A stretch of 64,000 nt of DNA, taken from positions 63,922,001-63,986,000 of the forward strand of contig OX597830.1 of assembly GCA_951406725.2 (NCBI GenBank), given 5' to 3'. Shown here piece by piece: positions 21,424 to 44,074 of the stretch. The notes beneath the pieces were generated by a model. It made no database searches and was not told the origin of the DNA. It saw only the letters and a program-made list of their open reading frames with translations. The stretch is from Octopus vulgaris. Lineage: Eukaryota. Within the stretch, counting starts at the first letter, position 1; every line of letters begins with the position of its first letter. Made by a program: the position numbers and the translations under genes.

Positions 21424-21716
21424 GGCACTACTTGAGAACAGTGGTCCCGGTGCGCGCACTCGCGTAGTCGCGCATCCGCTCTTGCTAGTCGTGACTAGTC
21501 GATCCTACGACTGCTAGCAAAGTAAATAAAACACAAAATAAATAATTTTTTTACACAAAATAAATAAAACACAAAAAAACAAAGTAATTAATTTTTTAAA
21601 CAAAGTAAATAAAATACAAAAAAAAACAAAGTAAGGATCGACTAGTCATGACTAGCTGGCGCGGGTGCGCGAGTACGCGAGTGCGCGCACCGGGACCACT
21701 GTTCTCAAGTCGTACC
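21424..21716. mobile_element. Mutator-like MITE with ~83-bp GC-rich TIRs
   Basis: 21424-21506 is the near-perfect reverse complement of 21634-21716; GG...CC ends; 9-bp TSD ttaaaaaat / ttaaaaagt; A-rich internal repeats. Confidence 0.8.
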
Positions 21717-21869
21717 TTAAAAAGTTACATGAAATATATAATTAAAACTTAGAAATGAATATTCTTAAAATTCCGGGAGAGTGTCTATGTAAGGGAAATA
21801 ACCGGAGTGGCGCCCGGTGAAAGCGAGATAAGTCCTGGAAACTGACGGAGGGAAAAATTATCTCCAAAC

Positions 21870-23348
21870 ATGAACCGAAATGATGGAAGCGAACTGGTTA
21901 TTGGTGATCGTATCGAATGTGATGATTATTTTGGGACGATAAAATATATAGGAGAAGTTGACGCGATGGAAGGTGTTTGGTTTGGCATTGATTGGGACGA
22001 AATTCATCGGGGAAAACATGACGGAAGCTATAAAGGTAGGCGTTACTTTCAAGCAGGACATCCTAAATCTGGTTCGTTTATTAAACCAATAAAGGCTAAA
22101 TTGGGACAATCTTTCCCTGACGCTTACGTCTGTAAAGTTAAAGATGTTATTGATGTGCCTTCAAGAATTCTGATTCTCAATAATCATGCAATTTATGGTC
22201 TTGGTTCCCAGCAAGTGACCAGTCAGTTTTCGGCGATTGCCTCAAAAATAACAGAATTAGATCTTTCTGGTAATTTGTTGAAGAATTGGACTCAAGTTGC
22301 TGAAATTACTAACTTAATTCCTAATCTGTTGAAGTTAAATGTAAGTAATAACCGTTTAATAATTCCTGAACACGCGGAAAACTTGTCAAAATCTTTTGCC
22401 AAAGTAGAAGATCTGGTTTTAAACCGAATGAACTACGACTGGGTCGACATTTTATCTGCTACGTCGATGTTTCCGTCCCTTCGAGGTTTGTACGTGTGTT
22501 TTAATAATTTGGAAAAATTGGCTGATTCCACGGGGAAATTGACAAACCTGAAATTTCTCTCATTAATAGACAATCGCTTAAGTGACTGGAACGAACTTTT
22601 AAAACTTGGTCAACTTCCTCAATTGAGCACACTTTATGTAAATAACAATCAACTGACAGCCGTCTCCTTCAATGACGTACCTTTGGAAGACGGCGAGAAA
22701 ACCACATATTTTCCTTCTCTGAAGTGTTTAGATTTAAGCAGCAACCTCATCGATAACCTGTCATCAATCGATGAGCTTAGTAAATTAGCCAACCTTGCCG
22801 AGTTTTCTTTCCTTCATAATCCAGCAGCAGATATAGATGAGGACAAACTATTTAATTTGATAATTGCCAAAATTGGCAGTTTAAAAAAATATTCAAAAGC
22901 CGAATTCCTTGTCGAAGAACGGAAAAGTGCTGAAATATTTTATCTTCGCATGGTTGAGAAACAGGCATTAGAGAAAAATATCAGTGAAGAAGACACAGCT
23001 AAAACATGTTCAAGATACAAAGAACTGGTAAAGTTATATGGACATGCAAGTCCTGAATCATTAATAACCAAGACAACTGTTCTACGAGATAAATTAATTG
23101 CTGTTGACATTGAAACTGTTAATATTCCTGATAAAGTGTTCAAGAACAAGAAATTATCTCCAACCATGACCATTCTAAAACTGAAGTTACTTGTACAAAA
23201 ACTCTTTAAAATTCAAGAAATAACTAACCTAGAATTATCTTATATCAGTAAAAACAATTCTCAATTGGAAGTTCACTTAGAGAATGATTTGCATGAACTG
23301 TCGTTTTACAGTATAGAAAATGGTGATAATCTCGTTGCAAAATGGTAA
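21870..23348 (+). CDS. TBCE: Tubulin-specific chaperone E homolog, intronless CDS (492 aa: CAP-Gly, LRRs, LRR cap, ubiquitin-like domain)
   Basis: CAP-Gly GTIKYIGEV...GVWFGIDWD...RGKHDGSYKGRRYF...SGSF; LRRs (ITELDLSGNLL, LKCLDLSSNLI); ERxxAE cap; C-terminal UBL KKLSPTMTILKLK...LENDLHELSFYSIENGD..VAKW. Confidence 0.93.
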   Translation: MNRNDGSELVIGDRIECDDYFGTIKYIGEVDAMEGVWFGIDWDEIHRGKHDGSYKGRRYFQAGHPKSGSFIKPIKAKLGQSFPDAYVCKVKDVIDVPSRILILNNHAIYGLGSQQVTSQFSAIASKITELDLSGNLLKNWTQVAEITNLIPNLLKLNVSNNRLIIPEHAENLSKSFAKVEDLVLNRMNYDWVDILSATSMFPSLRGLYVCFNNLEKLADSTGKLTNLKFLSLIDNRLSDWNELLKLGQLPQLSTLYVNNNQLTAVSFNDVPLEDGEKTTYFPSLKCLDLSSNLIDNLSSIDELSKLANLAEFSFLHNPAADIDEDKLFNLIIAKIGSLKKYSKAEFLVEERKSAEIFYLRMVEKQALEKNISEEDTAKTCSRYKELVKLYGHASPESLITKTTVLRDKLIAVDIETVNIPDKVFKNKKLSPTMTILKLKLLVQKLFKIQEITNLELSYISKNNSQLEVHLENDLHELSFYSIENGDNLVAKW

Positions 23349-24160
23349 TTTATGCTTTACTTCATTCCTGTCTATGATAACTTTAAACCGGCAACTATTG
23401 TGCTTTGTAAAATATTTCCTGCATGAACTTTTATTAAAAGTGTGAGACACTTCAGTTTTTTTTCTTTTTTTTGTTTTAGTATTTTAGTTTTGTTTTCACC
23501 ATGAAAGCTAAGCTCATGCTGGAGTCCTTCTTTCAGAACTGTAATCATGTTTATGTTTGTCTCTCTCTCTCTGTACTTGACAACTAGTGTTGGTCTGTTT
23601 CCATACTTGTAACTTAGCGGTTCAGCAAAAAGTGCCCGATGTAATAAGTACTAGACTTAAAAATTCACACTGGGGTCGGTTTGATTGACTTAACCCTTTA
23701 TGATAGTACCCCTGCATAGCTGTAGATAATGACTGAAACAAGTAAAATTAACCTGTCTCCTCGTGACGAGAAATTCTTATTATTTGAAACGGGACAAGCT
23801 GGCAGAGTCATTAACATGCCAGACAAAATGCTTAGAAGCATTCCATCTGTCTTTAGGTTCAAATGCTACCAAGGTTGATTTTATCTTTCATCCTTTTGGG
23901 AGACGAGGAAGCATGAAATAAATACCAGTTGAGTGTTGATGTAATTGACTCGCTCCTTCTACAAGAAATTTTGGGACTTATGCTTGTAGAAGTACGGATT
24001 ATTTGAGAGAGAAGTGGTTTACAGAATCAGTGGAGTATCAGACAAAATGTCTTGTATTTAAATACTTTACATCTGATTTCAAAAACCACCAAACTGAAGT
24101 TGATCTTTAATCCACGCAGTTAATAAAATATACACCAATCATGTAACAGATACTATTTAA

Positions 24161-25203
24161 CCCTTTCGTTACCATTCACCGCCTTTACTCTTTACTCTCT
24201 TCTACTCTTTTATTTGTTTCAGTCATTTGACTGCGGCCATGCTGGATCACCGCCTTTAGTCGAGCAAATCGACCCCGGGACTTATTCTTTGTAAGCCCAG
24301 TACTTATTCTATCGGTCTCTTTTGCCGAACCGCTAAGTGATGGGGACGTAAACTCATCAGCATCGGTTGTCAAGCAATGCTAGAGGGACAAACACAGACA
24401 CACATACATATATACGACAGGCTTCTTTCAGTTTCCATTTACCAAATCCACTCACAAGGCATTGGTCGGCCCGAGGCTATAGCAGAAGACACTTGCCCAA
24501 GATGCCATGCAGTGGGACTGAACCCGGAACCATGTGGTTGGTAGGCAAGCTACTTACCACACAGCCACTCCAGCGCCTTTGTTTCAATTGATTTTGCAAT
24601 TAAACACTTAGTAAAGTAATTGTTGTCATTTAGGTGTAAGGGGGTGAGCTGGCAGAATCGTTAGCATCATGGACAAAATTCTTAGTAGCATTTCATCCTT
24701 CTTTATGTTCTGAGTTCAAATTCTGTGAAGCTTGATTTTGTCTTTCATCCTTTCAGGGTTGATGTAAAAATAAGCACCAGCTGAGCTCTGGGTTCAGCGT
24801 AATTGACCAGCACCTTCCCCTAAAATTTCCACCTTTATGCCTACAGCAGAAAGGATTTTTAAACTGTTGTAAGGCAGTGAGCTGGCAGAATCATTAGCAT
24901 GCTTAGCGGCATTTCACCTGCCTTTAGGTTCTGAGTTCAATTTCTGCCAAGGTCGACTTTGCTTGTATTCTTTCAGGATTGATAAAATAAGTACAAGTCA
25001 AGCACCAGAGTAGAGGTAATAAACTTCTTCCTTTCCTGGAACATGCTGGCCTTGTGTCAAAATTTGAAACCATTGTTGAGCAGATTTTCGGGACATAAAT
25101 AAAACCGAAATATTGAAGAAAGATTTTAATTTGAATCACTTTAGAACAAGAAGTTTGTGTCTTAGACTTGTGGAGGGCCTCAGGTAGGTTGGTATCAAAA
25201 GGG
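24161..25203. mobile_element. piggyBac-like MITE expanded by nested SINE insertions
   Basis: TTAA|ccctttcgttacc ... ggtatcaaaaggg|TTAA; internal pieces match the compact MITEs at 29530 and 31788. Confidence 0.65.
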
Positions 25204-26139
25204 TTAATCAACTCCCCTCTCCACCTGCCACACGTCTTTCAATGAAACATGTTAGCAATGGTTTACATGTAATATTTAATTAGAATACATCCTTGAGATA
25301 TTAAATATTACATTCTTTTGCAAAATTCAGTGGTGTCCACTGAGATGTACATTTAAGATTGTTCTCTACTGACAAAGACGTGGGTATGGGGTTAAGAAGT
25401 TTGCTTCAGTAATCACATGGGTTGAGGTTCAATTTCACTGAACAGCATTTTGGGTAAATGCCTTCTACAATAGCCCTGCACTAATCAAAGCCTTGTGAGA
25501 AGATTTGGTTGACGGAAACTGAAAGACGCTCATCATGTGGGTTATGCACTTGCATGCATAAATACATTTGTGTCCCCTTGTCTTGACATTGTGTCGTAAT
25601 TGAAAATGAGAACCCCTGTCATGCAAGCAGTAACATTCATTTCCATTATTCTGTGGAAACATGTCTGGTCATTGGGGAAATACTATCTTGTTTAGAAGCA
25701 TGTGAGGGTGGACAACAGGAAGGGCATCCAGCTGTAGAAAATCTGCCCAAATAGACTCCATCAGACTCATAGAAAAGTGGATGTTAAAATGATGGTGATC
25801 TATCATTTATTTGCTTCAGTCATTAGACTGCAGCCATGCTGGAGCACTGCCTTGAGGAATTTTGAGTCCAATGAACTGACCCTGCTACTTTTATTCTTTT
25901 TCTTTTTTAATAGTACATATTCTGTTGGTCTGTTTTGCCAAATGACCAAGTTATGGGGATGTAACCACCAACATCAACTGTCAAACAGTGGAAGACAAAT
26001 ACACACAAACACACACACATTCAATTTCTGCCAGCTTGCCACCTTATTAACAATAATAATCTTTTCTATTAGAAGTACAATGCCTGATAATGATAATAGC
26101 ATCCACTTTTCTGTCTTTTATGATCAGATGCCCTTCCTG

Positions 26140-26385
26140 TGGAGGCACGTAGCTTAGTGGTTAGGTGTTGAACTCATGATCGTAAGGTTGTGGTTTCGAT
26201 TCCTGGACCAGGTGATGTGTTGTGTTCTTGAGCAAAACACTTCATTTCATGTTGCTCCAGTCCACTCAGCTGGCAAAAATGAGTAATCCTGCGATGGACT
26301 GGCATCCCATCCAGGTGAGGAATTTCTACGCCACTGAAACCGGGAAACCAGCCCTTATGAACCTGGCATGGCTCGAGAAGAAGGA
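26140..26385 (+). mobile_element. tRNA-derived SINE, family E (copies ~12522-12778 -, 27030-27275 -, 52120-52375 +)
   Basis: tRNA-like head gtagcttagtggttagg...ggtttcgattcc; core ttgagcaaaacacttcatttc...cactcagctggcaaaaatgagta. Confidence 0.8.
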
Positions 26386-27485
26386 AAGATGCCCTTCCTG
26401 TCACCAGTCCTCACTTGTTTCCAAGCTAAGTAATGTTTTACAGTTGTCAGACATGTTTTGATTCAAGATTGGAAATGAGAGTTGTAAACAAGCATCACTG
26501 TCATACAAGCAGTGTTGCTCATTCCCAGTCTTTCATGAAAAAAAAACCAAAAATATTTGCACATGTGGAAATATTACTTTGCTCGGAAACATGTATGGGT
26601 TGGTGATAAGGTGGACATCTGGCCATAGAATATCTGCAGAAAGAAATTCCACCTGAGCCATGCAAGCATGAAAAAAACCTGATGTTGAAACAATGATGGT
26701 GATGATATGGTGATTCTGTAACCTCTTCAGAAATAATATCTGTTGCCACACACTTGGTCCTTCCTTAATTTTCCAGTTGCTATGTGTTGACAGGTATTTA
26801 TGCAGCTTTCTAACTTAATTTATATATATATAAAAATAAATAAATGCGCCCTTTTTAAAGCCTAGCCAGGCTCATGGACCCAGTTTCTATGGCGTATGTG
26901 TTCCCCAGCAACGTGAAATGAAGTGTTTTGCTCAAGAACATAAACGCATTGCCTGGTCCAGGAATCAAAACCACAATCTTACGATCATGATGCTGACACC
27001 CTAACCACTAAATGCCTCCACAAAAATGTTCCTTCTTAAACCATGCCAGACTCATAAGGGCCGGTTTCCCGGTTTCAGTGGCATAGAAATTCCCCACTTG
27101 GATGGGACACTGATCCGTCGCAGGATTACTTATCTTTGCCAGCTGAGTGGACTGGAGCAATGTGAAAATGAAGTGTTTTGCTCAAGAACACAACGCATCA
27201 CCCGGTCCAGGAATTGAAACCACAACCTTGCGATCATGAGTTCAACACTCTAACCACTAAGCTATGTGCCTCCACGACTTATTGTATATATATCATCATC
27301 ATCATTTAGCGTCCGCTTTCCATGCTAGCATGGGTTGGACGGTTCAACTGGGGTCTGTGAAGCCAGAAGGCTGCATCAGGCCCAGTCTGATCTGGCAGTG
27401 TTTCTACGGCTGGATGCCCTTCCCAACGCCAACCAATATATATATACATATATATATACACACACACACACGTGTGTATAAATAT

Positions 27486-27726
27486 ATATAATCTATATAA
27501 AGGTTACAATACATGCATTAAAGTGCTACTAATAGTTTCATATGTTGAGAAATATCTCAAACATAATCTTCAGATGCAAACCACAAATCATAATGAACCA
27601 AAGACATTTTCTGTAGTTCATTATGATATGTGGTTTGCGCCTGAGGAATATGTTTGAGTTTTCTCAACACATGAAACTATTTGTAGCACTTTAATACATG
27701 TATTGTAACATTTATATAGATTATAT
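27486..27726. repeat. Long imperfect foldback palindrome (~113-bp arms, ~17-nt loop)
   Basis: 27486-27598 is the reverse complement of 27616-27726 with roughly a dozen mismatches. Confidence 0.85.
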
Positions 27727-27945
27727 TTGTCTCTCACCAAATGGAGTACATTTTTTGTTGAATTTTCTACCACAGATCAGTACATTATATATATATGTGT
27801 GTGTAGTTGTTTTTTGTTCATTACCTTCCACCATTTCTATCTAATTTACTACTCATTTACAAACTTACATTATTTAGCTGTCTTCTTATTCTTCTTATAT
27901 ACATACATAATATATATAGATATGTAAGTACGTACATATATGTAC

Positions 27946-27999
<54 letters not shown>

Positions 28000-28011
28000 C
28001 ATATATATATT

Positions 28012-29168
28012 ACAGTGGCTCATGGGTGGATGTTGTCTACCTTGACTTTGCTAAGGCTTTCAACTCTGTGCCACACAAAAGGCTTATGGTGAAACTCTCT
28101 GCAATGGGTGTGGGGGATGACCTTTTTAACTGGTTGAAATCCTTCATCCCCAGCCGAAAGGAGGTAGTCACAGTTCTAGGACAGCACTCTACACCATATG
28201 AGATGTCATCGGGTGTACCACAGGGATCTGTCCTTGGTCCCCTCCTGTTTGTGGCATACATTAATGACATAGATGCCAATTTAAAGAATGCCACAGTATT
28301 GAAATATGCAGACGACATCAAGCTGTACCTTGAAATCAAGAGGACTGATCCTGATGTCTACAACTCTTTCCTGCAATCAGACCAAGACACAATGCAGCAA
28401 TGGATCACAGACTGGCAACTGAAACTGGCTGTGGACAAGTGTACCACCATGCATTTTGGGAGAAAAAACCCTGCGTCCACATACTCCCTTCACAACACTG
28501 ATATCAAGAAATCCTCTTGCGAGCGTGACCTAGGCATCACTGTCAGCAGTGATTTGCGTTGGACAAAGCATATCTCTAAAATTGTCAAGAAGGCCGAGGG
28601 TGTCTTGGCATCACTCAGCAAGACTTTTGTTAGCCGCTCTCCAGCCATCTATTTAAAACTGTATACAGCTATGGTACGACCACACTTGGAATTCGCATCA
28701 TCAGTTTGGAATCCCTATCTTGCTCAGAACATTGACCTCCTGGAATCTGTCCAGAGACATGCAACCAAACGCATACCCTCCATCAGACACCTACCATATT
28801 CTGAGCGCCTTGTTTCCCTGGGCATGGATTCACTGAAGCTCCGGCGTCTGGCGACGGACTTGGTAAACACCCACAAGGTTATCAACCACCTCACCAACAA
28901 CAACACTGAACACCTTTTTGATCTCCATGTGTCTAACACACGTGGACATGCCTACAAAGTCAGAAAACAGCACAGCTCCCATGACTTTCGGAAACATTTT
29001 TTCACGTTCAGGGTTGCTGAAGCGTGGAATAAACTGCCTGCATCAGTTGTTGACTGCCATGACACTGCATCCTTTAAGGCCCTCATGCTTCCCGAAATCC
29101 GTCGAAACTACACCTGATTATATATATACACTTTAGATGAGTTGTAGTGCACCTGAGCACTGTACACA

Positions 29169-29185
<17 letters not shown>
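28012..29185 (+). mobile_element. CR1-clade LINE, 5'-truncated, with uninterrupted RT-domain frame
   Basis: VDVVYLDFAKAFNSVPH, SGVPQGSVLGPLLF, KYADDIKLY, ERDLG, VRPHLEF...WNP, TRGH, WNKLP; stop at 29117; (ATT)n tail; inserted in (TA)n. Confidence 0.95.
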
Positions 29186-29199
<14 letters not shown>

Positions 29200-29225
29200 T
29201 ATACATACATATATATGCATATATT

Positions 29226-29259
<34 letters not shown>

Positions 29260-29529
29260 TATACATACATACAAACAAACAGTATACATATATAACAAAA
29301 CAGGAAAGTGGAAATGTTTTAGTATTATTTATTCTGCATTTGACATGTTTTTTATTTGCTGATAGGTGCTACAAAGATTTACATGTTATATACATATGTA
29401 AAGAATTTCTTATGAGAAATTTATGAGATAAAGAGAAAATTTTTGCTATATAATACAAAAATACACCTAGATGAAGCGTTTATATATACAACCTCCAATA
29501 CCATTCATAGCCATGACTTGATCCCTTAA

Positions 29530-29749
29530 CCCTTTCGTTACCATATCTATTTTGAGATGTTCTGTGTTTCTTTCAATTACGTTAAATATAACAAAGAATT
29601 TAGTAAATTAACTCAGTTATCATTCAACTAGTGTTAGGAACATAAATTGTGACTAATGTTTGGTGGAAGATTTTAATTCAAATTTTATGAAAACAAGACA
29701 TTTGTACTCAAAGCAAGAGCCAGTTTCAGCCAGGTTGGTAATGAAAGGG
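29530..29749. mobile_element. piggyBac-like MITE
   Basis: TTAA TSDs; TIRs ccctttcgttacc / ggtaatgaaaggg. Confidence 0.85.
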
Positions 29750-31787
29750 TTAACTTGACATTATCCATGGCATCCATCATAATCCCATAATGTTGAACTT
29801 TTCCCAGACATCTTTCATACACTAGCATTATCTATCCTATCAACTGCTTTCCTACTTTGTCCAAAAATTCTTTCCAGATAATAAACCTTGAAGTTAACTA
29901 AGTCACCTTGATCCATTGACTGGAGCAAAGAATCTGTGTTCTTAAGGTTGTGTTCCATTCTGATGTTATCAGAAACATCACCATCATCATCGTTTAACGT
30001 CCGTTTTCTATGCTGGCATGGGTTGGACGGTTTGACTAGGGACTGGCAAACTAGAAGACTGCACCAGGCTACAATCTGATCCAGCAAGGTTTCTACAGCT
30101 GGATGCATTTCCTAATGCCAACCACTCCGAGGGTATAGCGGATGCTTTTAATGTGTAACTGGCATGGGAACCAGTCAGGCAGCACTGGCAACAACCACAT
30201 GTGGATGGTACTTTTCATGTAGCACCATTTATGTCTATTTGGTGGGTTAGTGCCACATGTAAAAGGAGCAATACTTTGTAAGAAATATTACACCAAACAG
30301 TGTACCTTTGTATAGCAGGGCAGTAGGCTTGGAAAAGCACATGGCCCAGTGGTTAGAGCGTCAGGCTCACAAGCATGAGGTAGTGAGTTTGATTCCTAGA
30401 CTGGGCTGTATTCTTGAGCAAGACATTTTATTTGATGTTGCTCCATTTTACTTAGTTGTAGAATTGGGTTGTGATGTCACTGGTGCCAAGCCGTATCAGC
30501 CTTTGCCTTCCCCTTGGATAACATCGGTGCCATGGAGAGGGGAGGCTGTTATGCATGGGTGACTGCTGGTCTTTCATAAACAGCCTTGCCCAGATTGATA
30601 CCTTGGAGGAGAACTTTCTACGTGCAATCCCATGGTCATTCATGACCGATGAGGGTCTTTATCCCTTTAGTCTTGGAAAAGGTTCATAGTCACCCAATTC
30701 TTTTTATTTGAAAGCCAAATCACAGCTTGATTAAACTTAACACCTGAAACCTACCTATTGGTTAATTGTAATGATGCAAAAACAGAGACTTTCATTTCAT
30801 ATCACCAACATCATCGACAGTATTTCCTCATTCAAGAATTGTCATGGAATTATAAAAACCTTAATTCTTTAGCTTTTGAACTGACCATATATGGCCCAAA
30901 TATTCTTCCAGTTATATGCTCAAACTGTCAAAATCTGATCTCTTACACCTACCCTACAATGTCTTTGTAAAAATGAACAGTTACATCTCTGAGTAATTCA
31001 AAGCAATGCAAACTAATATACATTTGACAGAGTAATCATCATCATCATTTAATGTCTGCCTTCCATGCTGGCATGGGTGGGATGGTTTGACAAGAGCTGG
31101 CCAGGCAGAAGCCAGCAACACTCTTCTGTAACTGTTTTGCAGGATTTTTACAGCCGGATGCCCTTCCAAACACCACCATTCAGCAGAGTGGACTTAGTGT
31201 TTCTTACATGGCACAAGCACAGGTGAGGTTAGTTTTGGCAAGGTTTTTACAGCTGGATTCCCTTCCAAACAACAACCACTTTACAGTGTGGACTGGGTGC
31301 TTTTAAGTGGCACCTGCACTGACAGGGTCACCAAGTACTTGCAAGACAAAAAAAAAAAAATTAAATGCTAAATGGTTAAAGTTTGGTATCAGTTTTCTTC
31401 ACCGGAAATTTTTTTTAAATGTCCTGGCAGGCAATCACTTCCAGAAAAGCCAAACTTCATCAAAATTGTACACTCGTTCTGGTATGTAGCTTCTTTCAGC
31501 AATCAATTTCTTTGGTTTTTCAGGATAATTAATAACAGCCTCTACAACAGCAGTGGCAGCTTCACTGACTATTTTAATGTTGTAAAAAATAAGGCACTTC
31601 TTTAAACCTTTCAAACCAGTAGTTAATAACCAGAAAAGGATTTTGCATTACATGTTGCTCCATGGCCATTTTGCAAATTGCCATAAAAACTTTTAGCTTT
31701 CATATAGAAAAAACAATTTTGTTTATCAACACATAGCATTTCATCTGATCAGCAATCTACACACACAATAGAGACATTCCATATTAA

Positions 31788-31992
31788 CCCTTTTGTTACT
31801 GTATATATTTTGAGATGCTCTGTGTTTCTTTCAATTACTTTAAATATAACAAAGAATTTAGTAAAATAACTTAGTTATCATTCAGCTTGTATTAGGAACA
31901 TAAATTGTGACTTAGGTTTGGTGGAAGATTTTAATTAAAACCTTAAGCAAACAAGACATTTGTACAACAAAGCCGGGTTGGTAACAAAAGGG
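31788..31992. mobile_element. piggyBac-like MITE (same family as 29530)
   Basis: TTAA TSDs; cccttttgttac / gtaacaaaaggg; internal sequence alignable with 29530-29749. Confidence 0.85.
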
Positions 31993-32164
31993 TTAAACAT
32001 TGTATCAGATCTAAGCAAGAGAATATTTCTCCATGGTTGGTCATGTTTTTCTCAGAAGATTGGAAACAAAGGACACGTCTTGTGTGACAGTGATGCTCAT
32101 TCATGACTAGTGTGTGATATTAATGATATCAAAGTATAGAGTCATATACACATGCACACAAACT

Positions 32165-32204
<40 letters not shown>

Positions 32205-32279
32205 AGCAAATTAGCTTGTTAGAAAACCACTGTAAAAGATGAAACTATCTATACTGAGTAGTAATGCTTATCACCACTT

Positions 32280-32520
32280 GAGGCTTGAGGCTTCCACTTA
32301 AGGACTTGATTGATGAATTTTGTTCATCAAGAGTCTAACATGTTGCAGCCAATTCATTCAGCACTTGCGGATGATGATGTCTGCTGGGCATTGGTCTGTT
32401 CTTCTTTTGACCTCCTCACTGCTGATAAAGTTGTTCCATTTGATGTCCAGTATTTTCTGGAGACATCTGCTATCAAAAGTGTCCACTTTCTTTGACTGGT
32501 TTTCAGTTGCTATGGTTAAA
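32280..32520 (-). mobile_element. Short decayed RTE LINE fragment
   Basis: KKVDTFDSRCLQKILDIKWNNFISSEEVKRRTDQ. Confidence 0.65.
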
Positions 32521-33289
32521 TTCAATGACAATACTAAACAGGTGGGCAGAACAAAGTTTCTACTCAAAAATTAATTTAGAGCATGTAAAAAAATATTTCT
32601 TTATTATTAAAATATATGAGCAAATGATATGAAATTTATATAAAGCATATATCAAGATTTTTTATATTAAATAGCTAAATTATGCTTGTCCCAAACCAAT
32701 TAAATAAACAAATTAAATAATAAGAAAGCAAGAAAAAAAATATATTATGAAATTTCACACAAAATTTCAGATATGCATTAAATTTTGATATGTTCAGTGA
32801 ATAAAGCATTATTATTATTATTATTATTAGTGTTGTTGTTATTATTATTGGTGGTAGTTTCAGATTTTGCCACAAGGCCAGCAAGGACAGATGGTAAAGT
32901 TGATCTCAGTGGAATTTGAGGTCAGGACATACAGACAGATGAAATGCTGCTGAGCATTATGCCCAGCATGCTAATGATTCTGCCCACTCACTGCCTTCAT
33001 TAGTATAATTATGATCATCATCATCCTCATCATTTAACATCCATTGTCCATACTAGCATGGGTTGGACGGTTCCACCAGGGCTGGGAAGCTGGAAGGCTG
33101 CACCAGACTCCAGACTGATTCGGCATGATTTCTACAGCTGGATGCCCTTCCTAATGCCAACCACTCTTAGTCTGTAATGGGTGCTTTTATGTGCCAGCTG
33201 CACAGGTGCCATTTGTGTGACACCATGTTGCCAAAATTGTTAAAGCATCGGACAAATTGCTGAGCAGCATTTCTTGCAACTCTTTACAT

Positions 33290-33850
33290 TATTACTGACC
33301 TTTAGCGAAGGCAGAGGTATTGTTTTTCAGTCATGTTTGTTTGTCCGTAGTCAAGATATCTCAAGAACCACTGGACGGATTCAGATGAAACTTTCGGGGA
33401 TGTTTGGCCTCGTGACTGACCTGAACTAATTAAATTTTGGGAACCGGACAAGGGTTCTGGATTGTTATATCATGTTAACTTTCAAGTCTTTCTCAATTAT
33501 CTCCCTTTAGGCTGTAACTATTTTGAATGGTGAATCTGTTAACTTTGACTTGTATTAGATAAGGATAAACTATTTATTACTTATTACTGTTACTAAATTT
33601 TCTACAGCCACTGTCACATTCCATGACTATCATTGGGATCGATCAGGTACCAGGAAAGGATTCTGGATTATTTTTCAGGCTTGTTTTACTTAATGTCTGA
33701 GAGCGGTCGGGTTTGTTTTTAGTATTCTCGCTTGTGTGAGCAGACAAGTTTATTTCAAATATTCTCATTTTAAAAATCATCTCTGACTAATTGTTGAGAG
33801 GATGTTGGCGTTGCCTTGGTGGAGGTTTGCGCTCTCTGAGTGCTCTTGTT
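33290..33850 (+). mobile_element. Non-autonomous Helentron (HINE/DINE-like) element; 3' part repeated at 39148-39302
   Basis: 5' attac...gaggtattgttttt followed by a gtttgtttgtcc microsatellite; 3' ccttggtggaggtttgcgctctctgagtgc subterminal repeat and hairpin; T-rich insertion site. Confidence 0.6.
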
Positions 33851-33893
33851 ATTATTATTTTTACAATTATTATTATTATTATTTTTATAATTA

Positions 33894-34405
33894 ACTAGCA
33901 GTATCACCCGGCGTTGCTCGGGTTTGTAAGGGAAATAACTATATAAGCATTTTTAGTGAGCTATAGCAAAAAAATGCATTAAAAATGGAATAAAAAATGA
34001 TGGTAATTTTGGTGTCTTCAAGCCATGAAGTCGTTCTAAAAGAACGCTGGTCTCCTTGACAATGCTTTACGACGTTGATTTCCTAACACTCCCTTCCCCA
34101 CAGCTTCACCAGGGAGGGAAGAAGGGGGAGAAGCACACAGGTGCAGCTGTGAGCATGGATGCCAACTCCGCCGCCATCGACACACGAAAAATTAGGCATT
34201 AAAATGGAATAAAAAATGATGTTAAATTATTTTTAAAATCGTAGACTCATCGTTGACGCGCGCTAATAGCCAGACGGGCTCGATATGAATCACAACTATA
34301 AGATACCCGAATTTGGTTAAACTGCACCGCAAAATATGGGAGTAGTTAGGAATCTAAATCGAAGGGGACAGACACTCACACAACTACAGTTTTATATATA
34401 TAGAT
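33894..34405 (+). mobile_element. Non-autonomous rolling-circle (Helitron-like) element
   Basis: actagcagtatcacccggcgttgctcggg hairpin at one end, gacagacac...tttatatatatagat at the other; absent, without TSD, from the paralogous segment near 39580-39630. Confidence 0.65.
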
Positions 34406-34483
34406 ATTATTTCCTCAATTTTATGAAAGCAGAATAATTGCCTGTTTAACGTTATCATAGACAGGAATGTATTAAAGCCAGAA

Positions 34484-37228
34484 TTACCACTTTGCAATTA
34501 AACTATCGCCATTTTCTATGCTGTAATGAGACAGTGGCTTAAAATCATTGTCTAATTCAACTTTTACTTCAGGATTTTCTCTGCTGATATAAGATAGTTT
34601 TAGATTAGTCATTTCCTGAATTTTAAAGAGTTTTTGTACAAGTGACTTCAGTTTTAGAATGGTTATGTCTGGAGACAATTTCTTGTTCTTCAATACTTTA
34701 TCAGGAATATTATCAGTTTGGATATCAACAGCAATTAATTTATCTTGTAGCAGAATTGTTTTAGTTATCAATGATTCTGGACTCGCATGTCCATATTTCT
34801 TCACCAGTTCTTTGTACCTTGAACAGGTTTTAGCTGTGTCTTCTTCACCAATATTTTTTTCTAATGCCTCCCTCTCAACCATATCTAGATAATATACTTC
34901 AGCATTTTTCCTTTCTTCATCACGAATAAGGGTTTTATCATATTTTTTTAAACTGCCAATTTTACCAACGGTAATATAAAATAGTTTGTCCTTATATACA
35001 GCTCCCAATGGGTTATTTGCTAAAATAAGCTCAGTCAGGTTGGCCAGTTTGCTAAGCTCATCGATTGATGACCGGTTATTGATGTCATTCTTGTTTAAAC
35101 TTAGACATTCAAGAGAACGAAAATGTGATGTTTTCTTGCCATCTTCCAAAGATACGTCATTAAAAGAGACGGATGTCAATTGATTGTTATTTACGTAAAG
35201 TGTGCTCAACTGAGGAAGCTGACCAAATTTTAAAAGTTCATTTTCATCACTAATACGATTGTTTGACAATGAGAGGAATTTTAGCTTTGTCAATTTTCCT
35301 GTGGAATCAATAAATGTTTCCAAATTATTGAAACTTGCATACAAACGTTGAAGTGATGGAAACATTGATGTAACAGATAAAATGTTAGCCCAGTTATAGT
35401 CCATCCTGTTCAGAATAAGTTCTTCTACATTTGTAAAAGATTTTGCAAACATTTCTACATTTTCAGGAATTATCAAACGGTTACTACTTACATTTAATAG
35501 TATTAGATTAGGAATAATGTTAGCAATTTCCACAACTTGAGTCCAACTCTTCAACAGGTTAGTAGAAAGATCTAGTTCTGTTAATTTTGAGGCAATTGAC
35601 GAAAACTGACTGGTCACTTCCTGGGAACCAAGACCATAAACTCCATAATTATTGAGAAACAGAATTCTTGGAGTCATAATTAAAACATCTTTAGCTTTAC
35701 AGGCATAAGCATCAGGAAAAGACTGTCCGAGGTTAATGTGAAGTGGGTTAATAAAGGAACCAGATTTAGGATGGCTTGCTTGATAATAACGCCTACCTTT
35801 ATAGCTACCGTCATGTTTTCCCCAATGAATTTCATCCCAGTCAATGCCAAACCAAATACCTTCCATTGTGTCAACTTCTCCTATATATTTTATCGTCCCA
35901 AAACAATTCTCACTTTCAATACGATCACCAATAACCAGTTTGCTTCCATCATTTCGGTTCATATCTGGAAATAATTTCTTGTTTCTGATCATTTCTTCTG
36001 GAATATCACCATCTGTTAAATGACTTTGGAGGGAATGCTTTTCAGGATATTCATAACCATATTTCTGTCCAAGTTCTTTGTACCTTGAACACGTTTTAGT
36101 TAAGTCTTCTTCACTGATATTTTTCTCTAATGCCTGTTTCTCAATCATGCGAAGATAAAATATTTCAGCATCTTTCTGTTTTTCATCATGGATAATAGTT
36201 TTTGCATACTTTTTTAAACTGCCAATTTTGGCAATTATCAAATTAAACAGTTTGTCCTCATCTATATCTGCTGTTGGATTATGAAGGAAAGAAAACTCGG
36301 TAAGGTTGGCTAATTTACTAAGCTCATCGATTGATGACAGGTTATCGATGAGGTTGCTGCTTAAATCTAAACACTTTAGAGAAGGAAAATATGTGGTTTT
36401 CTCACCGTCTTCCAAAGGTACGTCATTGAAGGAGACGGCTGTCAGTTGATTGTTATTTACAGAAAGTGTGCTCAATTGAGGAAGTTGACCAAGTTTTAAA
36501 AGTTCGTTCCAGTCACTTAAGCGATTGTCTATTAATGAGAGAAATTTCAGGTTTGTCAATTTCCCCGTGGAATCAGCCAATTTTTCCAAATTATTAAAAC
36601 ACACGTACAAACCTCGAAGGGACGGAAACATCGACGTAGCAGATAAAATGTCGACCCAGTCGTAGTTCATTCGGTTTAAAACCAGATCTTCTACTTTGGC
36701 AAAAGATTTTGACAAGTTTTCCGCGTGTTCAGGAATTATTAAACGGTTATTACTTACATTTAACTTCAACAGATTAGGAATTAAGTTAGTAATTTCAGCA
36801 ACTTGAGTCCAGTTCTTCAACAAATTACCAGAAAGATCTAGTTCCGTTATTTTTGACGCAATCGCCGAAAACTGACTGGTCACTTCCTGGGAACCAAGAC
36901 CATAGATTACATAATTATCGAGAATCAAAATTCTTGAGCGCACATCTACGATATCGCCATGTTTACAGACGTAAGCGTCAGGGAAAGATTGTCCCAATTT
37001 AGCCTTTATTGGTTTAATAAACGAACCAGATTTAGGATGTCCTGCTTGAAAGTAACGCCTACCTTTATAGCTTCCGTCATGTTTTCCCCGATGAATTTCA
37101 TCCCAATCAATGCCAAACCAAACACCTTCCATCGCGTCAACTTCTCCTATATATTTTATCGTCCCAAAATAATCATCACATTCGATACGATCACCAATAA
37201 CCAGTTCGCTTCCATCATTTCGGTTCAT
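34484..37228 (-). CDS. TBCE: Tandem-fused TBCE homolog, intronless CDS, 914 aa: (CAP-Gly + LRR) x2 + one UBL
   Basis: Single open frame. Aa 1-422 are a TBCE unit truncated at the start of the UBL. Aa 423-914 (second MNRNDG, ATG at 35962) are a complete 492-aa TBCE colinear with the + strand gene. Confidence 0.92.
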   Translation of the reverse strand: MNRNDGSELVIGDRIECDDYFGTIKYIGEVDAMEGVWFGIDWDEIHRGKHDGSYKGRRYFQAGHPKSGSFIKPIKAKLGQSFPDAYVCKHGDIVDVRSRILILDNYVIYGLGSQEVTSQFSAIASKITELDLSGNLLKNWTQVAEITNLIPNLLKLNVSNNRLIIPEHAENLSKSFAKVEDLVLNRMNYDWVDILSATSMFPSLRGLYVCFNNLEKLADSTGKLTNLKFLSLIDNRLSDWNELLKLGQLPQLSTLSVNNNQLTAVSFNDVPLEDGEKTTYFPSLKCLDLSSNLIDNLSSIDELSKLANLTEFSFLHNPTADIDEDKLFNLIIAKIGSLKKYAKTIIHDEKQKDAEIFYLRMIEKQALEKNISEEDLTKTCSRYKELGQKYGYEYPEKHSLQSHLTDGDIPEEMIRNKKLFPDMNRNDGSKLVIGDRIESENCFGTIKYIGEVDTMEGIWFGIDWDEIHWGKHDGSYKGRRYYQASHPKSGSFINPLHINLGQSFPDAYACKAKDVLIMTPRILFLNNYGVYGLGSQEVTSQFSSIASKLTELDLSTNLLKSWTQVVEIANIIPNLILLNVSSNRLIIPENVEMFAKSFTNVEELILNRMDYNWANILSVTSMFPSLQRLYASFNNLETFIDSTGKLTKLKFLSLSNNRISDENELLKFGQLPQLSTLYVNNNQLTSVSFNDVSLEDGKKTSHFRSLECLSLNKNDINNRSSIDELSKLANLTELILANNPLGAVYKDKLFYITVGKIGSLKKYDKTLIRDEERKNAEVYYLDMVEREALEKNIGEEDTAKTCSRYKELVKKYGHASPESLITKTILLQDKLIAVDIQTDNIPDKVLKNKKLSPDITILKLKSLVQKLFKIQEMTNLKLSYISRENPEVKVELDNDFKPLSHYSIENGDSLIAKW

Positions 37229-37329
37229 GTTTGGAGATAATTTTTCCTCCGTAGTTTCTAAGGAATTACCTCGCTTCCACTGGAAACTATGAGAGTGATT
37301 TCCCTTAGATAAACACTCTTTTTTTCCCT

Positions 37330-37600
37330 CTTTTGTTTGTTCTTTTTATATATAAAAGATAAAAAGAAACAAGTTTTGTGACGAAGGGGGGGAGAAAACG
37401 TGGAGTGTCACGTGGGGAAGGCGGTGGCAAACCCGCGGGAATAAAACTGATTTACTATGGTAGCTGGTTATTTTTTTTCTCTTTTTCCAACTTTTCTGGA
37501 AGTTTGTCCTCTTACGTCAACCACTGGCAGCACCTCGCACCCGAAAAATTCGGCGCAAACAATGTCGTTATGTAGTTGATACCTGATGACGTAAACTATC
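37330..37600 (-). promoter_or_regulatory. Putative promoter of the fused TBCE gene
   Basis: Palindromic ttttatatataaaa (37344-37357) about 25-35 bp beyond the end of 5'-leader homology with the other gene; CpG-rich; E-box gtcacgtg; CRE-like ttacgtca and tgacgtaa. Confidence 0.5.
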
Positions 37601-37854
37601 TGATATAGTGTTTAGTGCTCCAGCATGGCCGTAGTCAAAATGTCTGGAGCAAGTAAAAGAATAGAAAATATAGTTATTTAAGTTTTTTGCTTTTATTTTT
37701 TTAATCTTTTTATTTTTCCTGAAATATTATAATCCCAAGGACACCTGTACCTGAGTGTCACTCGGTAGAATGGCGAAGTTTTGCGATTATAAACGTTATT
37801 TTAAATTAAATTAAACCTTTTATTAACGTGAATTCACAGTATAAAGACAGGTGG

Positions 37855-37892
<38 letters not shown>

Positions 37893-39585
37893 TCTTTTAC
37901 TCGTTTCTGTCATTTTGATTGTGGCCATGCTGGAGCACCGCCTTTAGTCGAACAAATCGCCCCCCTGGATTTAGTCTTTGTAAGCCTGGTACTTATTCTA
38001 TCGGACGCTTTTGCCGAACCACTAGCTTATGGGGACGTAAGCACACCAAGATCGATTTTTCAAGCGATGGGGTGCGTGCGTGTGTGTGTGTGTGTGTGTT
38101 CAATTACATCAAGGATATAAAATCGAGTACAGGTAATAAAAAAAACCGATAGAATAAGTACTAGGCTCACAAAGAATAAGTCCTGGGGTCGATTTGCTCG
38201 ACTAAAGGCGGTGCTCCAGCATGGCCACAGTCAAATGACTGAAACAAGTAAAAGTAAGTATTTATATATAATCTTTCAAGTAGGATTTAATGAGGCTGCG
38301 CTGTAAGAAGTTCATTTCCCATCCATATAGTTTTGGGCAAATGTCTTCTATTATAGCCCTGGGTTGATCAAAGGTTTGAGACTGGTAGCCGTTGTGTGTG
38401 CGTGTGTATAGGGGGGGGGTGTTACTGTCTTCTTGCCTTGACATTGTGTGACAGTTGTAAACAAGTGTCATTCTCATGCAAGCTGTGTCCTTTGATTTCA
38501 GTCTGGCCATGGGAAACCTCATTTGGGAAAAAATGAGAGTTGGCCACAGGGAGGACGGTAGAAAAATCTGCTTCACCAAATTCTGTCAAACTCATGTAAG
38601 CAGCTGGGAAAAGTGAACATTAAAATGATGATGATGATGATGATGACGACGGCGACGACGCTAATGATGGTGATGATGATGACGATGACGACGGCGACGA
38701 CGCTAATGATGGTGATGATGATATTTCGCTGCTAAAATAGGTCATGAGAATTTTATTGAACATGGCCTTCACATTTATCTTAAACGTGTATAAATTTTGA
38801 GATTAGATTAGGCCGTCCATATTTCTCTGATAACTCAGTAGATTTTTTTCATTTGAATAACATTCGCCGCGTGTTATTAATTTTATTGTTGATATATAAA
38901 TAAAAGCCCCTCTTATCGAAGTTCAAACTGATAACAGAATTGCGAGGACTGTTCCACTGTGACATAAACTTATTTATATGAGAAATTAACAATGTTGAAT
39001 TAACATTCAATAAAATGCAAATTTATACTTTTGTTACGTTTTTACTATTATACCCATCATAAGTAAGTTGGAAAAATTCTTAGCATGCTAGACAAAATGT
39101 CTAGCAGCATTTCATCCATCTCTACATTCTGAATTTAAATTCCACTTATGAGAGCGGTTGGGTTTGTTTTCAGTAATCTCGCTTGTGTGAGCAGACGAGT
39201 TTATTTCAGATATTCTCATTTTAAAAATCATCTCTGACTAATTGTTGAGAGGACGTTGGTGTTGCCTTGGCGGAAGTTTGCGCTCTCTGAGTGCACTTGT
39301 TATTATTATTATTTTTACAATTATTATCATTATTATTATTATTATTATTATTGAGTGAGCGAGCAGAGCATGCCATCAAAGTGACACTGGGGTAAAATAT
39401 ACGAAGCCCAGTATACCCATCATGACTACCCGTCTGATAAGGGTACACCAGGCACATGCATCACAACCATATGTGCGCGACATGGTGATCTCATATCAAG
39501 ATAAACAGCACATGACCTTGCAGGTGGAGCCCAGTTAGAATTTTCTTCAGATCGAGTAACCCATATTATTATTATTATTTTTATA

Positions 39586-39617
<32 letters not shown>

Positions 39618-39630
39618 AATTAATATTATC

Positions 39631-39830
39631 ATTTCCTCAATTTTATGAAAGCAGAATAATTACCTGTTTAAAGTTATCATAGACAGGAATGTATTAAAGC
39701 CAGAATTACCATTTTGCAATTAAACTATCGCCATTTTCTAAGCTGTAATGAGACAGTGGCTTAAAATCATTGTCTAATTCAACTTTTACTTCAGGATTTT
39801 CTCTACTGATATAAGATAGTTTTAAGATTA
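39631..39830 (-). pseudogene. TBCE: Third TBCE copy, 3' remnant (last ~40 codons plus 3'UTR)
   Basis: LKLSYISRENPEVKVELDNDFKPLSHYSLENGDSLIAKW* (stop 39706-39708); nearly identical to ~34408-34608. Confidence 0.9.
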
Positions 39831-42195: not shown

Positions 42196-44074
42196 TAGCA
42201 GCATAGCCCGGCGTTGCCCGGGTATGTAAGAGCCCCTAGTAGGCAACGACTAATCCCAATCTAGTCCTTTCCCTCTAGGGAACGAAGGCGCATGTGTAGG
42301 TTTCAATGTCTTCTCTTCACTCCCAAATAACTATCAAACAGCTATCGATAATTCAACCCAACCAATTCCTACCAGGAAGAAATTACATTCGAGACTTTAC
42401 CCCCAACACCGCCACTTCTGCTAATAGCTGCTGCAGCCGCAAGTTATTCGAATACTTTTTTTGTTTAAACTTTCTTTATAACTACCACCCCAAACGTTTT
42501 ACCTTAAATTTTTGACGTACCCTAAGGGTCCTCGGACGCTACTTGCAAACTCTTGGTTTATTATAAACCGCTTTTGTCGTGTGCACCAAAAAACTTTTTC
42601 CATTCGTTTGTTCAGTTTGGTCACTTTTGACTTTTTCGTTGTTGTCACTCACATTGCTGCCCGCTTTTTTTGCCGTTTTTGTACATTTTTATACATTTTG
42701 GGATACTTACCCCACGTGTTCCGAGAGTTAAAAAGGTCGAGTTGCGTACCCTAGACAGTCTGTAGAAAATGTGTTTAATACACAAATCGGTTTGCTATGT
42801 GTGCCACATATAATAATAATGAAATTAATTGTATACAGTGCTCAGGTGCACCACAACTTGTCAGAAAGTGCATATAAAGTACATGCAGTAATGTACAAAT
42901 GTCTGGAAAGTGAACAGTGTATGAGTCAGATACATGCTTGTGTGTGTATGGAGGGGAGAAAATCAGGTGTAGTGTTGGCAAATCTCAGGAAGCATGGAAG
43001 TTTTGAAGGATGCAGTGCTCCGACAACTAACAACTGATGCCGGCAGTTTGTTCCATGCTTCAGCAACTCTCAGCGTGAAAAAATGTTTCCTGAAGTCATG
43101 GGAGCTGTGCTGTTTTCTTACTTTGTAAATATGTCCACGGGTGTTAGATGGGTGGAGTTTGAAAAGGTGCTCAGAGTTATTGTTTGTACGATGGTTGATA
43201 ATTTTATGGGTGTCTGCCAAGTCAGCTGCCAGACGTCGGAGTTTCAATGTGTCCATGCCCAGGGAAGTAAGGCGTTCAGGATATGGCAAATGCCTGATGG
43301 AGGGTATTCTTTTGGTTGCACGTCGCTGAACAGCTTCCAGACGATTGATATCCTGGGCAAGATAGGGATTCCAGACCGGTGATGCAAATTCCAGGTGAGG
43401 TCTTACTATAGCTATATAAAGCCGCAGATAGATAGCCGGAGAGCGGCTCACAAAGGATTTGGTGAGTGATGCCAAGACACCCTCAGCCTTCTTGACAATT
43501 TTAGCGATGTGTTTTGTCCAACGCAAATCACTGTCGACAATAACACCCAGGTCACGTTCAACCGATTTTTTCCAGTAATAAAGTATCCTATTGGAATAAA
43601 AAGGGCCATATAGCTCCTTGGAGCAGATACGATGCTCGTTGTGAATTTAAAAAAAAATTCCTGCCAATTCGTGAAAGATATTGTCGAAAATACGTCATCT
43701 TGAATTTGAACGCGATTTCCCAAAATGGCATGATTTTATCGATTTTTTCTGATGGTAAGGTATTGCATGGAAAACTAACGTCAGAATTAAGTTTCTTAGG
43801 GTAACATTAAGCTTCACCATGAGTTTGGTGAAAATCGATTGCAAGTTGCGAAAACTACAACAGAAAATGTGTTGCATATAAAAAGCTTAGATTCTCGACC
43901 CCATGTCGAATTTATCGATTTTTTCAGAACTGGGGGAACTTTTCAAAATTTTCGCTGCGTTAGTTTTGAATTATGACATTGGGCTATGTGTGTGTCAAGT
44001 TTCATCAGAATCGGTTGAAAGCTGTGGTCAGGGTGAGGGTACAACCTGACAGACACACAGACAGACAAACTGCC

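Follow-up and report, generated by a model that had tools for sequence, protein, structure and literature searches.

An octopus pair of TBCE genes, one ordinary and one encoding a conserved 914-residue protein with a doubled tubulin-gripping arm

TBCE is an essential chaperone that is usually encoded by a single-copy gene. The window analyzed here, a stretch of 64,000 nucleotides of Octopus vulgaris DNA (contig OX597830.1, positions 63,922,001 to 63,986,000), contains two such genes, A and B (Table 1). They are convergent, their frames are free of stops or gaps, and, as both coding frames are continuous, neither has coding introns. The ORF calls thus confirmed the two intact, intronless and facing TBCE frames plus a 3′ remnant that a preliminary description of this DNA had put forward; its "expanded cluster" amounts to three CAP-Gly-LRR units in two genes, plus a single remnant, for which the word "expanded" is an overstatement. 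No further TBCE copies were found within 30 kb to either side of the cluster. The 3′ flank of the remnant (to position 39627, and 39149–39347) matches that of B. The ends and hairpin of the high-copy element beyond the stop codon of B are presumably Helitron-like. A search of Rfam with positions 15000–46000 of the window yielded zero matches. Z-linkage of the window was rejected, as the one Z-linked marker used, SPAG9 (PMC10925132), lies on C16 and the window on C17.

Table 1. Features of the TBCE locus (positions are those of the window).
Feature	Position	Strand	Evidence
92-nt 5′ flank of A, shared with B 37229–37319 (opposite strand)	21778..21869	+	flank alignment
5′ leader and start codon of A, likely fusion template	21855..21873	+	18/19 nt match to A codons 428–434
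Gene A, intronless 492-aa TBCE	21870..23348	+	ORF call, Pfam, alignment to solved human TBCE
510-bp high-copy element, 80 nt past the B stop codon	33895..34404	-	copy number, ends, hairpin
Gene B, intronless 914-aa double-armed TBCE	34484..37228	-	ORF call, Pfam, 914-aa orthologues
Unit B2: full-length though diverged TBCE (492 aa), three-helix bundle and UBL intact	34484..35962	-	alignment
Fusion junction; B2 Met at the position of monomer UBL Met433	35959..35977	-	alignment, contigs in 4/4 runs
Unit B1, 422 aa: CAP-Gly and LRR nearly as in A, altered three-helix bundle	35963..37228	-	alignment
3′ remnant, B2-type copy, last ~41 codons	39706..39830	-	97% DNA identity to the B2 3′ end

The product of gene A has the domain order CAP-Gly (aa 11–74), LRR, three-helix bundle and UBL; Pfam recognized a single PF01302 (CAP-Gly) domain plus LRRs, and the human TBCE chain of a solved structure (9M1K_E) could be aligned to it from residue 125 through to the C-terminus. 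Its orthologues are XP_029647187.1 (98%) and XP_014777020.1 (91%). In B, PF01302 was matched twice, together with LRRs, and a weak ubiquitin-like match (aa 832–907) scored 21.3 bits versus a cut-off of 23.1. Unit B2 opens at the Met at position 35962 and aligns with A without a gap at 73% identity. The composition (CAP-Gly-LRR)-(CAP-Gly-LRR-UBL) with a second unit of 492 aa, as described before, is therefore borne out by Pfam and by this alignment. A and B2 both end at the last residue of human TBCE, in a UBL with the conserved terminal Trp; B1 has a short decayed UBL start at its C-terminal end and then no UBL. The GKHDG motif is present in A, B1 and B2, and the residue preceding it is changed from Arg to Trp in B2 of the O. 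vulgaris genome only. The three-helix bundle of B1 carries E350K and R351Q; R351, which is 97% conserved among 116 other TBCE-family sequences, is kept in B2. Conserved family positions are retained at 105/139 in A and 99/139 in B2, and the net charge of the LRR is −1 in B2 versus −7 in A. An existing structure prediction of B has a pLDDT of 0.77 and a lower pTM of 0.58, as expected of two folded halves lacking a fixed orientation. Judged from their sequences, the two arms of B are not equivalent: B1 resembles A and lacks the UBL anchor, whereas B2 retains that anchor and its arm has diverged.

Orthologues of B with the same length of 914 aa are present in Octopus sinensis (XP_029647177.1; 98%) and O. 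bimaculoides (XP_014777048.1; 90%), and 819 of the 914 columns are invariant in the three species. The B1/B2 junction was bridged by contigs in all four sequencing runs examined, one presumed to be DNA (X3) and three presumed to be RNA (X1, X6 and X16); their nucleic-acid type was guessed, no run with a match being recorded as RNA, and junction-crossing contigs do not establish a single transcript. X3 also lacked cover upstream and hence offers no silent-region control. In run X6, all six differences listed at B2 codons 32–47 match A; this A-like tract could reflect either conversion of one allele or a bubble that collapsed during assembly. The near-identical stretches of A and B1, with a longest identical run of 349 nt, could mislead an assembler. 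That B is an assembly artefact or a neutrally decaying duplicate is nevertheless scarcely credible: an identical 914-aa architecture is on record for two further species, the junction was found in every run examined, and neutrality was rejected by both dN/dS and simulation. With the misassembly that the preliminary description had named as a danger thus ruled out, and with junction-spanning contigs from presumed-RNA runs (RNA status guessed) at hand, B is almost certainly a real, conserved Octopus gene under purifying selection.

The evidence for selection is as follows. Between O. vulgaris and O. bimaculoides, B differs at 89 amino acids, versus a neutral expectation of 162–211 based on a genome-wide dS of 0.091–0.123 (PMC10925132), and none of 2000 neutral simulations retained the open frame. 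The dN/dS between A and B2 was 0.38 (CI 0.29–0.51). With a ratio between units that is not near 1, and with B changing at about half the neutral pace or less, the earlier claim that selection keeps the frame open was upheld. The helix bundle of B2 contains 2 changes in 60 positions. Gene A, with 46 changes in 492 positions, evolves at the pace of B, so that none of the copies is under more than moderate constraint. For B1, the stretch that is specific to this unit (residues 341–422) has 7 differences in 82 positions versus 15–19 expected if neutral (P 0.001–0.014). The remainder of B1 is harder to read: compared with A, its CAP-Gly (85 codons) differs by 1 synonymous change and its LRR by 4 amino-acid changes in 230, and conversion from A could preserve both without selection on B1 itself. 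Direct support for selection on B1 thus comes only from residues 341–422 and from the intact reading frame.

Identity between A and B1 is a patchwork, in which a B1-specific patch (residues 91–106) keeps its own residues in three species although the sequence on either side of it was converted. As read from this pattern, gene conversion holds the first arm of B nearly identical to A, the TBCD-facing parts being lost or altered. An intron-containing TBCE parent was not found in an exon-by-exon search in which only the best candidates were scored, whether the query was of octopus or bivalve origin or was the CAP-Gly family, and the other CAP-Gly matches in the genome (11/11) have no GKH motif; A and B therefore look like the sole TBCE genes of this genome. 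A weak match on C10 proved to be an intron-containing gene with a Met start just before the linker; the 200 kb examined there yielded no match to CAP-Gly. From this architecture and its motifs, we take it to be probably TBCEL-like, and it was ruled out as the parent; an atlas look-up of it gave no usable match. The proposal of a locally amplified retrogene is consequently retained as far as intronless copies and local amplification are concerned, and revised in that no living parent was found and the amplification was at the DNA level, as the common flanks of the copies indicate.

In a tree without TBCEL outgroup, A, B1 and B2 form one clade (98/96), to which Argonauta TBCE is sister (100/99). 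The leader and start codon of A match A codons 428–434 (positions 23151–23169) in frame, a score reached in 1 of 2000 shuffles. Beyond this 19-nt core, similarity of the leader to UBL-coding DNA is weak (9 of 30 non-independent tests with P<0.05, the best 0.006); the leader may derive from UBL-coding DNA. We infer that a DNA-level duplication of an intronless cephalopod TBCE would have followed the split from Argonauta, that two head-to-tail copies were probably joined at the 18/19-nt match, and that A and B1 would have exchanged sequence repeatedly ever since. An in-frame deletion between copies in tandem is thus the likely origin of B; the age estimated for the fusion is after the Argonauta split and before that of O. 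bimaculoides (13–34 million years ago).

What does the additional arm do? In published structures of TBCE, the UBL and helix bundle touch TBCD and β-tubulin, and the LRR-CAP-Gly arm binds α-tubulin (PMC12881605, PMC13155304); the arm was recently proposed to be a lever that places or removes α-tubulin, and there is disagreement over whether TBCE remains bound throughout the cycle (same sources). In yeast, an N-terminal GFP on TBCE was tolerated and loss of the UBL was not (PMC4574351). The B1 arm, with 422 residues, is far bigger than that tag. A division of labor is suggested by B1 equaling A in CAP-Gly and LRR while lacking the UBL and carrying R351Q, and by B2 keeping both R351 and the UBL. 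That B docks into TBCD-TBCE-Arl2 via B2 and that its first arm likely holds extra α-tubulin is the reading we tentatively adopt, at slightly less than an even chance. B2 would anchor and swing in the manner of TBCE, and B1 would be a tethered, non-anchored catcher that either feeds α-tubulin to the cage or holds the α-tubulin released by it. A bolder version, in which this protein loads or unloads α-tubulin processively, with B2 anchored in the TBCD-Arl2 cage and B1, held in canonical form by gene conversion with its inverted neighbor, pre-loading the next molecule as an answer to the surplus of α- over β-tubulin loci (about four to one in this genome), is doubtful. The CAP-Gly-LRR linker comprises 49–52 residues in cephalopods versus a median of 81 in 116 others, and five conserved positions of its motif are gapped in 12/12 units of the cephalopod clade; lacking this motif, cephalopod TBCEs may not follow the yeast/human mechanism. 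The motif shed in the octopus lineage is conserved from fungi to vertebrates.

Alternatively, B could be a second working TBCE, i.e., a dosage or tissue-specific paralogue, the first arm of which is tolerated cargo that is kept by the need for a frame and by conversion from A. B2 by itself is a complete TBCE; it would rely on the promoter and start codon of B1, which would keep B1 in frame, as translation of B2 demands an open B1 frame anyway; exchange between A and B1 is shown, and N-terminal tags on TBCE are tolerated. This explanation is rather unlikely given that the unconverted stretch 341–422 changed at less than half the neutral count, that patch 91–106 persists between converted sides, and that the length of B is fixed in three species. 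It is also conceivable, if quite improbable, that only the DNA is fused and the products are separate, B2 being made from its own Met (by internal start or cleavage) and B1 remaining a UBL-less fragment: the Met of B2 is in a start-like context and B2 is a full-length TBCE, but the junction shows no stop or length change in three species, and contigs from presumed-RNA runs span it.

The preliminary description had proposed a bivalent tubulin-binding chaperone or depolymerizer, possibly a lineage-specific microtubule regulator (e.g., of germline or nervous system); B could act outside the cage, as an avid, TBCEL-like dissociator of tubulin dimers or microtubule destabilizer. Two GKHDG CAP-Gly domains could indeed confer avidity for α-tubulin tails, the LRR charge of B2 is shifted, and the paralogue TBCEL depolymerizes microtubules when overexpressed (PMC3789837). 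Such a role is improbable, however, as the TBCD-docking UBL and helix bundle of B2 are under constraint and as a TBCEL-like gene is apparently present on C10, so that the role of TBCEL is not vacant.

No second double-armed TBCE was found among 6 matches at E≤1e-60 in proteins of 502–1600 aa (8000 candidates scored) or among 3 matches in proteins of 955–2725 aa (7998 candidates). From a search of 1.84 billion representatives, the best 150 were taken, and two CAP-Gly-LRR units were absent from the 10 longest of these; the 50% clusters can conceal fused forms behind a monomer, as is the case with octopus B. These protein searches did not turn up the architecture elsewhere among molluscs, where its wide occurrence had been named as counting against the preliminary proposal. 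Likewise, none of the papers listed in the literature covered (subscription journals and most supplements excepted) dealt with TBCE in cephalopods, a TBCE with two arms or an α-tubulin expansion in octopus, in line with the earlier remark that a two-CAP-Gly TBCE is not known to have been described. The B proteins are already in public annotation as plain TBCE, and their architecture is not remarked on in that literature. Octopus thus appears to possess a TBCE pair, an ordinary A and a conserved 914-aa B with a doubled tubulin-gripping arm, which likely holds a spare α-tubulin during work on another. A natural, selected TBCE with two arms, one anchor and a lost linker motif offers a direct test of the arm's own role and of α-tubulin delivery as a limit, and in this new protein architecture the breakpoint, age window and upkeep by gene conversion are all readable in the sequence.

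Compared with TBCE/Pac2 (human 9M1K_E and the yeast TBC-DEG structures), A and B2 share the CAP-Gly with GKHDG, the LRR, the helix bundle and the C-terminal UBL, whereas B adds a further CAP-Gly-LRR arm that has no UBL. The octopus genes also lack coding introns and have been duplicated (two genes and three arms versus a single arm and a single copy), and cephalopod sequences are short of ~30–37 residues of the CAP-Gly-LRR linker, including the conserved motif. TBCEL (COEL-1, mulet), a TBCE paralogue, likewise has an LRR and a UBL and affects how stable tubulin is (PMC3789837), but it lost the CAP-Gly, which is present in A and doubled in B. TBCB hands α-tubulin to TBCE (PMC4574351, PMC13155304), which is the job proposed for arm B1; it is, unlike B1, a free protein of UBL and CAP-Gly without LRR. 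Exons of TBCB were found on C6, so B1 is no replacement of a lost gene, and B as a substitute for either TBCB or TBCEL was rejected, both being apparently present. CLIP-170 and CLIP-115 have two CAP-Gly domains per chain, as does B; theirs, however, are adjacent, carry GKNDG and are not accompanied by an LRR, whereas those of B lie 422 residues apart and each heads an LRR arm.

The preliminary description had two intact intronless TBCE genes facing each other beside a third, 3′ remnant. Both frames are indeed unbroken, the genes (A, single, and B, double-armed) are convergent, and the remnant, which also carries part of gene B's 3′ flank, was located (Table). The window, rich in microsatellites, lies at G000:C17:63922001-63986000 of a 2.8-Gb genome, and no further TBCE copy was found within 30 kb on either side. 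In gene B, a first unit of 422 aa (B1; CAP-Gly, LRR, helix bundle) is fused to a complete unit of 492 aa (B2), which, as described before, has the length of the monomer and aligns gap-free with A (73% identity). The window's TBCE proteins are 98% identical to those of O. sinensis and 90-91% to those of O. bimaculoides. Among the repeats, one LINE-type fragment sits between A and B; the inverted-end element could supply or alter gene A's promoter; and the 510-bp element just downstream of B, which we take to be Helitron-like, is missing from the remnant's matching flank.

Features of the window and related loci
Feature	Location	Strand	Description
Gene A	window 21870-23348	+	Unbroken frame, 492 aa
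Gene B	window 37228-34484	-	Unbroken frame, 914 aa
3′ remnant	window 39830-39706	-	Final ~41 codons of B2-type copy, 97% DNA identity
Linker deficit site in A	window 22130-22170		Equivalent sites in B1, B2
Inverted-end element	window 21424-21716		CpG-rich; 83-bp ends 90% alike; stops ~150 nt upstream of A start
High-copy element, 510 bp	window 33895-34404	-	TC...CTAG ends, 3′ hairpin, A/T target
LINE-type reverse-transcriptase fragment	window 27807-29117	+	80% like the next, opposite orientation
LINE-type reverse-transcriptase fragment	window 42961-43646	-	
Repeat nest	window 44133-45514		184-bp unit, 3 tandem copies plus inverted copies
TBCEL-like gene (L102-L106)	G000:C10:62204885-62241996		With introns; ~160-residue acidic, serine-rich insertion inside LRR region
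30 tubulin loci (L064-L093)	G000 C9, C11, C6, C1, C2, C4		
Divergent beta-type tubulin frame (L040/L090)	G000:C2:139622597-139623736		Intronless, 463 aa, without acidic C-terminal tail
Alpha-tubulin gene (L073)	G000:C9:61167175-61170564		Intron-like segment in frame and stop-free; 496-aa read-through
JIP3/SPAG9 exons (L094-L096)	G000:C16:32318616-32321920		

The fusion in gene B is real, not a misassembly. In a cluster look-up, O. sinensis had a 914-aa orthologue (XP_029647177.1) and so did O. bimaculoides (XP_014777048.1), in either case accompanied by a 492-aa orthologue of A. The three species' B proteins align gap-free with 819 of 914 columns invariant. Of 24 sequencing runs, 20 contain 72-91% of the sampled words from the region, and contigs bridge the junction with >31 nt on each side in all four runs checked (X3, guessed to be DNA; X1, X6 and X16, guessed to be RNA, from three studies). 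In X1 (contigs totaling 17.6 Mb), two overlapping contigs span 34371-37165, which fits a transcript if the guess of RNA holds; X3 likewise has holes upstream and thus provides no control for this reading. At window 35824, the arginine preceding GKHDG in the B2 CAP-Gly domain (96% conserved) is tryptophan, also in X1; the O. sinensis protein and that of O. bimaculoides have arginine there.

The dN/dS between A and B2 was 0.38 (bootstrap 0.29-0.51), not near 1; the interval for B1-B2 was 0.29-0.50. Compared with O. bimaculoides, which split off 13-34 (PMC10925132) or ∼34 (PMC10700109) million years ago, 89 of 914 residues differ in B and 46 of 492 in A. Genome-wide dS for the pair O. bimaculoides and O. 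sinensis is given as 0.091-0.123 (PMC10925132). With the neutral expectation built on genome-wide, not locus-specific, dS, 2,000 simulations of B yielded 162-211 changes and kept the open frame in none; the B1-only stretch (341-422) showed 7 changes versus 15-19 expected. Gene B is under selection, with a constraint that is moderate, not strong.

A and B1 differ patchily at 59 of 1,188 nt, with one identical run of 349 nt, and A and B2 at 268 of 1,479 nt, the longest identical run being at most 34 nt. Among informative residues taken from O. vulgaris and O. bimaculoides, eight (26 and 148-282) place A with B1 by species and 14 (91-106 and 344-397; counted to residue 400) group them by paralogue (clustering P = 0.0007). 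Gene conversion thus homogenizes CAP-Gly and LRR again and again, and the latter two patches, specific to B1, persist.

In yeast and human structures, as described in PMC12881605 and PMC13155304, TBCE touches TBCD and beta-tubulin with its UBL and helix bundle, and its LRR-CAP-Gly arm, by swinging, places or removes alpha-tubulin; UBL deletion reportedly blocks assembly and a GFP at the N terminus is tolerated (PMC4574351). In B1 the UBL is lost, bundle residues E350 and R351 (conserved in 77% and 97% of 116 sequences from outside the cephalopods) are changed, and CAP-Gly and LRR agree with A. B2 still has E350, R351 and the UBL; its conserved arm positions 72, 75 and 240 and its LRR charge are altered. 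An existing structure model of B has a pLDDT of 0.77 and a pTM of 0.58. The simplest reading, put forward tentatively, is one anchor with two arms: B2 would dock as the anchor and B1 would be a tethered catcher of alpha-tubulin. In the main alternative, which is rather unlikely, gene B would be just another ordinary TBCE that tolerates B1 as cargo; the constraint on the B1-only stretch speaks against this, though that stretch comprises just 82 residues. A gene B product acting as a free depolymerase seems improbable, and its yielding separate products quite improbable.

No intron-containing TBCE was found in the genome with A or a bivalve TBCE as query. A CAP-Gly search able to detect intron-split domains (some were found) gave 14 matches, three in the window; the GKH motif is missing from all other 11, and the sole TBCE-like exon elsewhere belongs to the TBCEL-like gene on C10. 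Hence, the genome seems to have no TBCE genes besides A and B. A 498-aa relative, recorded whole on one 412-kb contig, suggests that intron loss may predate octopuses. In the tree (23 rows, midpoint root), A, B1 and B2 cluster (98/96); the one Argonauta protein branches outside this group, and the cephalopod stem is long. A 92-nt 5′ flank common to the copies and a 3′ flank common to B and remnant indicate that they arose by DNA duplication. Of the local retrogene amplification previously proposed, the intronless state thus stands, but the parent was not found and the spread was via DNA. The 5′ leader and start codon match codons 428-434 of the same gene, in frame and at the junction, at 18 of 19 nt (reached by 1 of 2,000 shuffles). 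Had a deletion joined two tandem copies at this match, exactly the gene B layout would result; alternatively, the leader itself may descend from an older junction.

All 12 cephalopod-clade units lack the CAP-Gly-LRR linker motif of other TBCEs, a deficit of ∼30-37 residues including five positions 63-94% conserved in the 116 other sequences. Among 30 tubulin C-terminal loci retrieved out of 41 matches, 23 are of alpha type, 6 of beta type and 1 is unassigned, so that alpha loci far exceed beta loci; one or more of the alpha copies seem to be broken. Alpha-tubulin clusters lie on C9 and C11, with varied C-terminal tails. Because TBCE is the alpha-side cofactor, this skew is suggestive, as a correlation in one genome. 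JIP3/SPAG9 is reported to be Z-linked in O. bimaculoides (PMC10925132), and from its location here C16 may be the Z.

No other double-armed TBCE emerged among the protein candidates scored and the cluster representatives, in which cephalopods are thinly sampled; titles and abstract openings mention none, and cephalopod genome-paper supplements, of which one file was searched, may list the duplication. By sequence tests, A and B2 are TBCEs; the doubled arm of gene B and the copy number deviate from the usual TBCE, and gene B is a real, selected, octopus-lineage TBCE variant.
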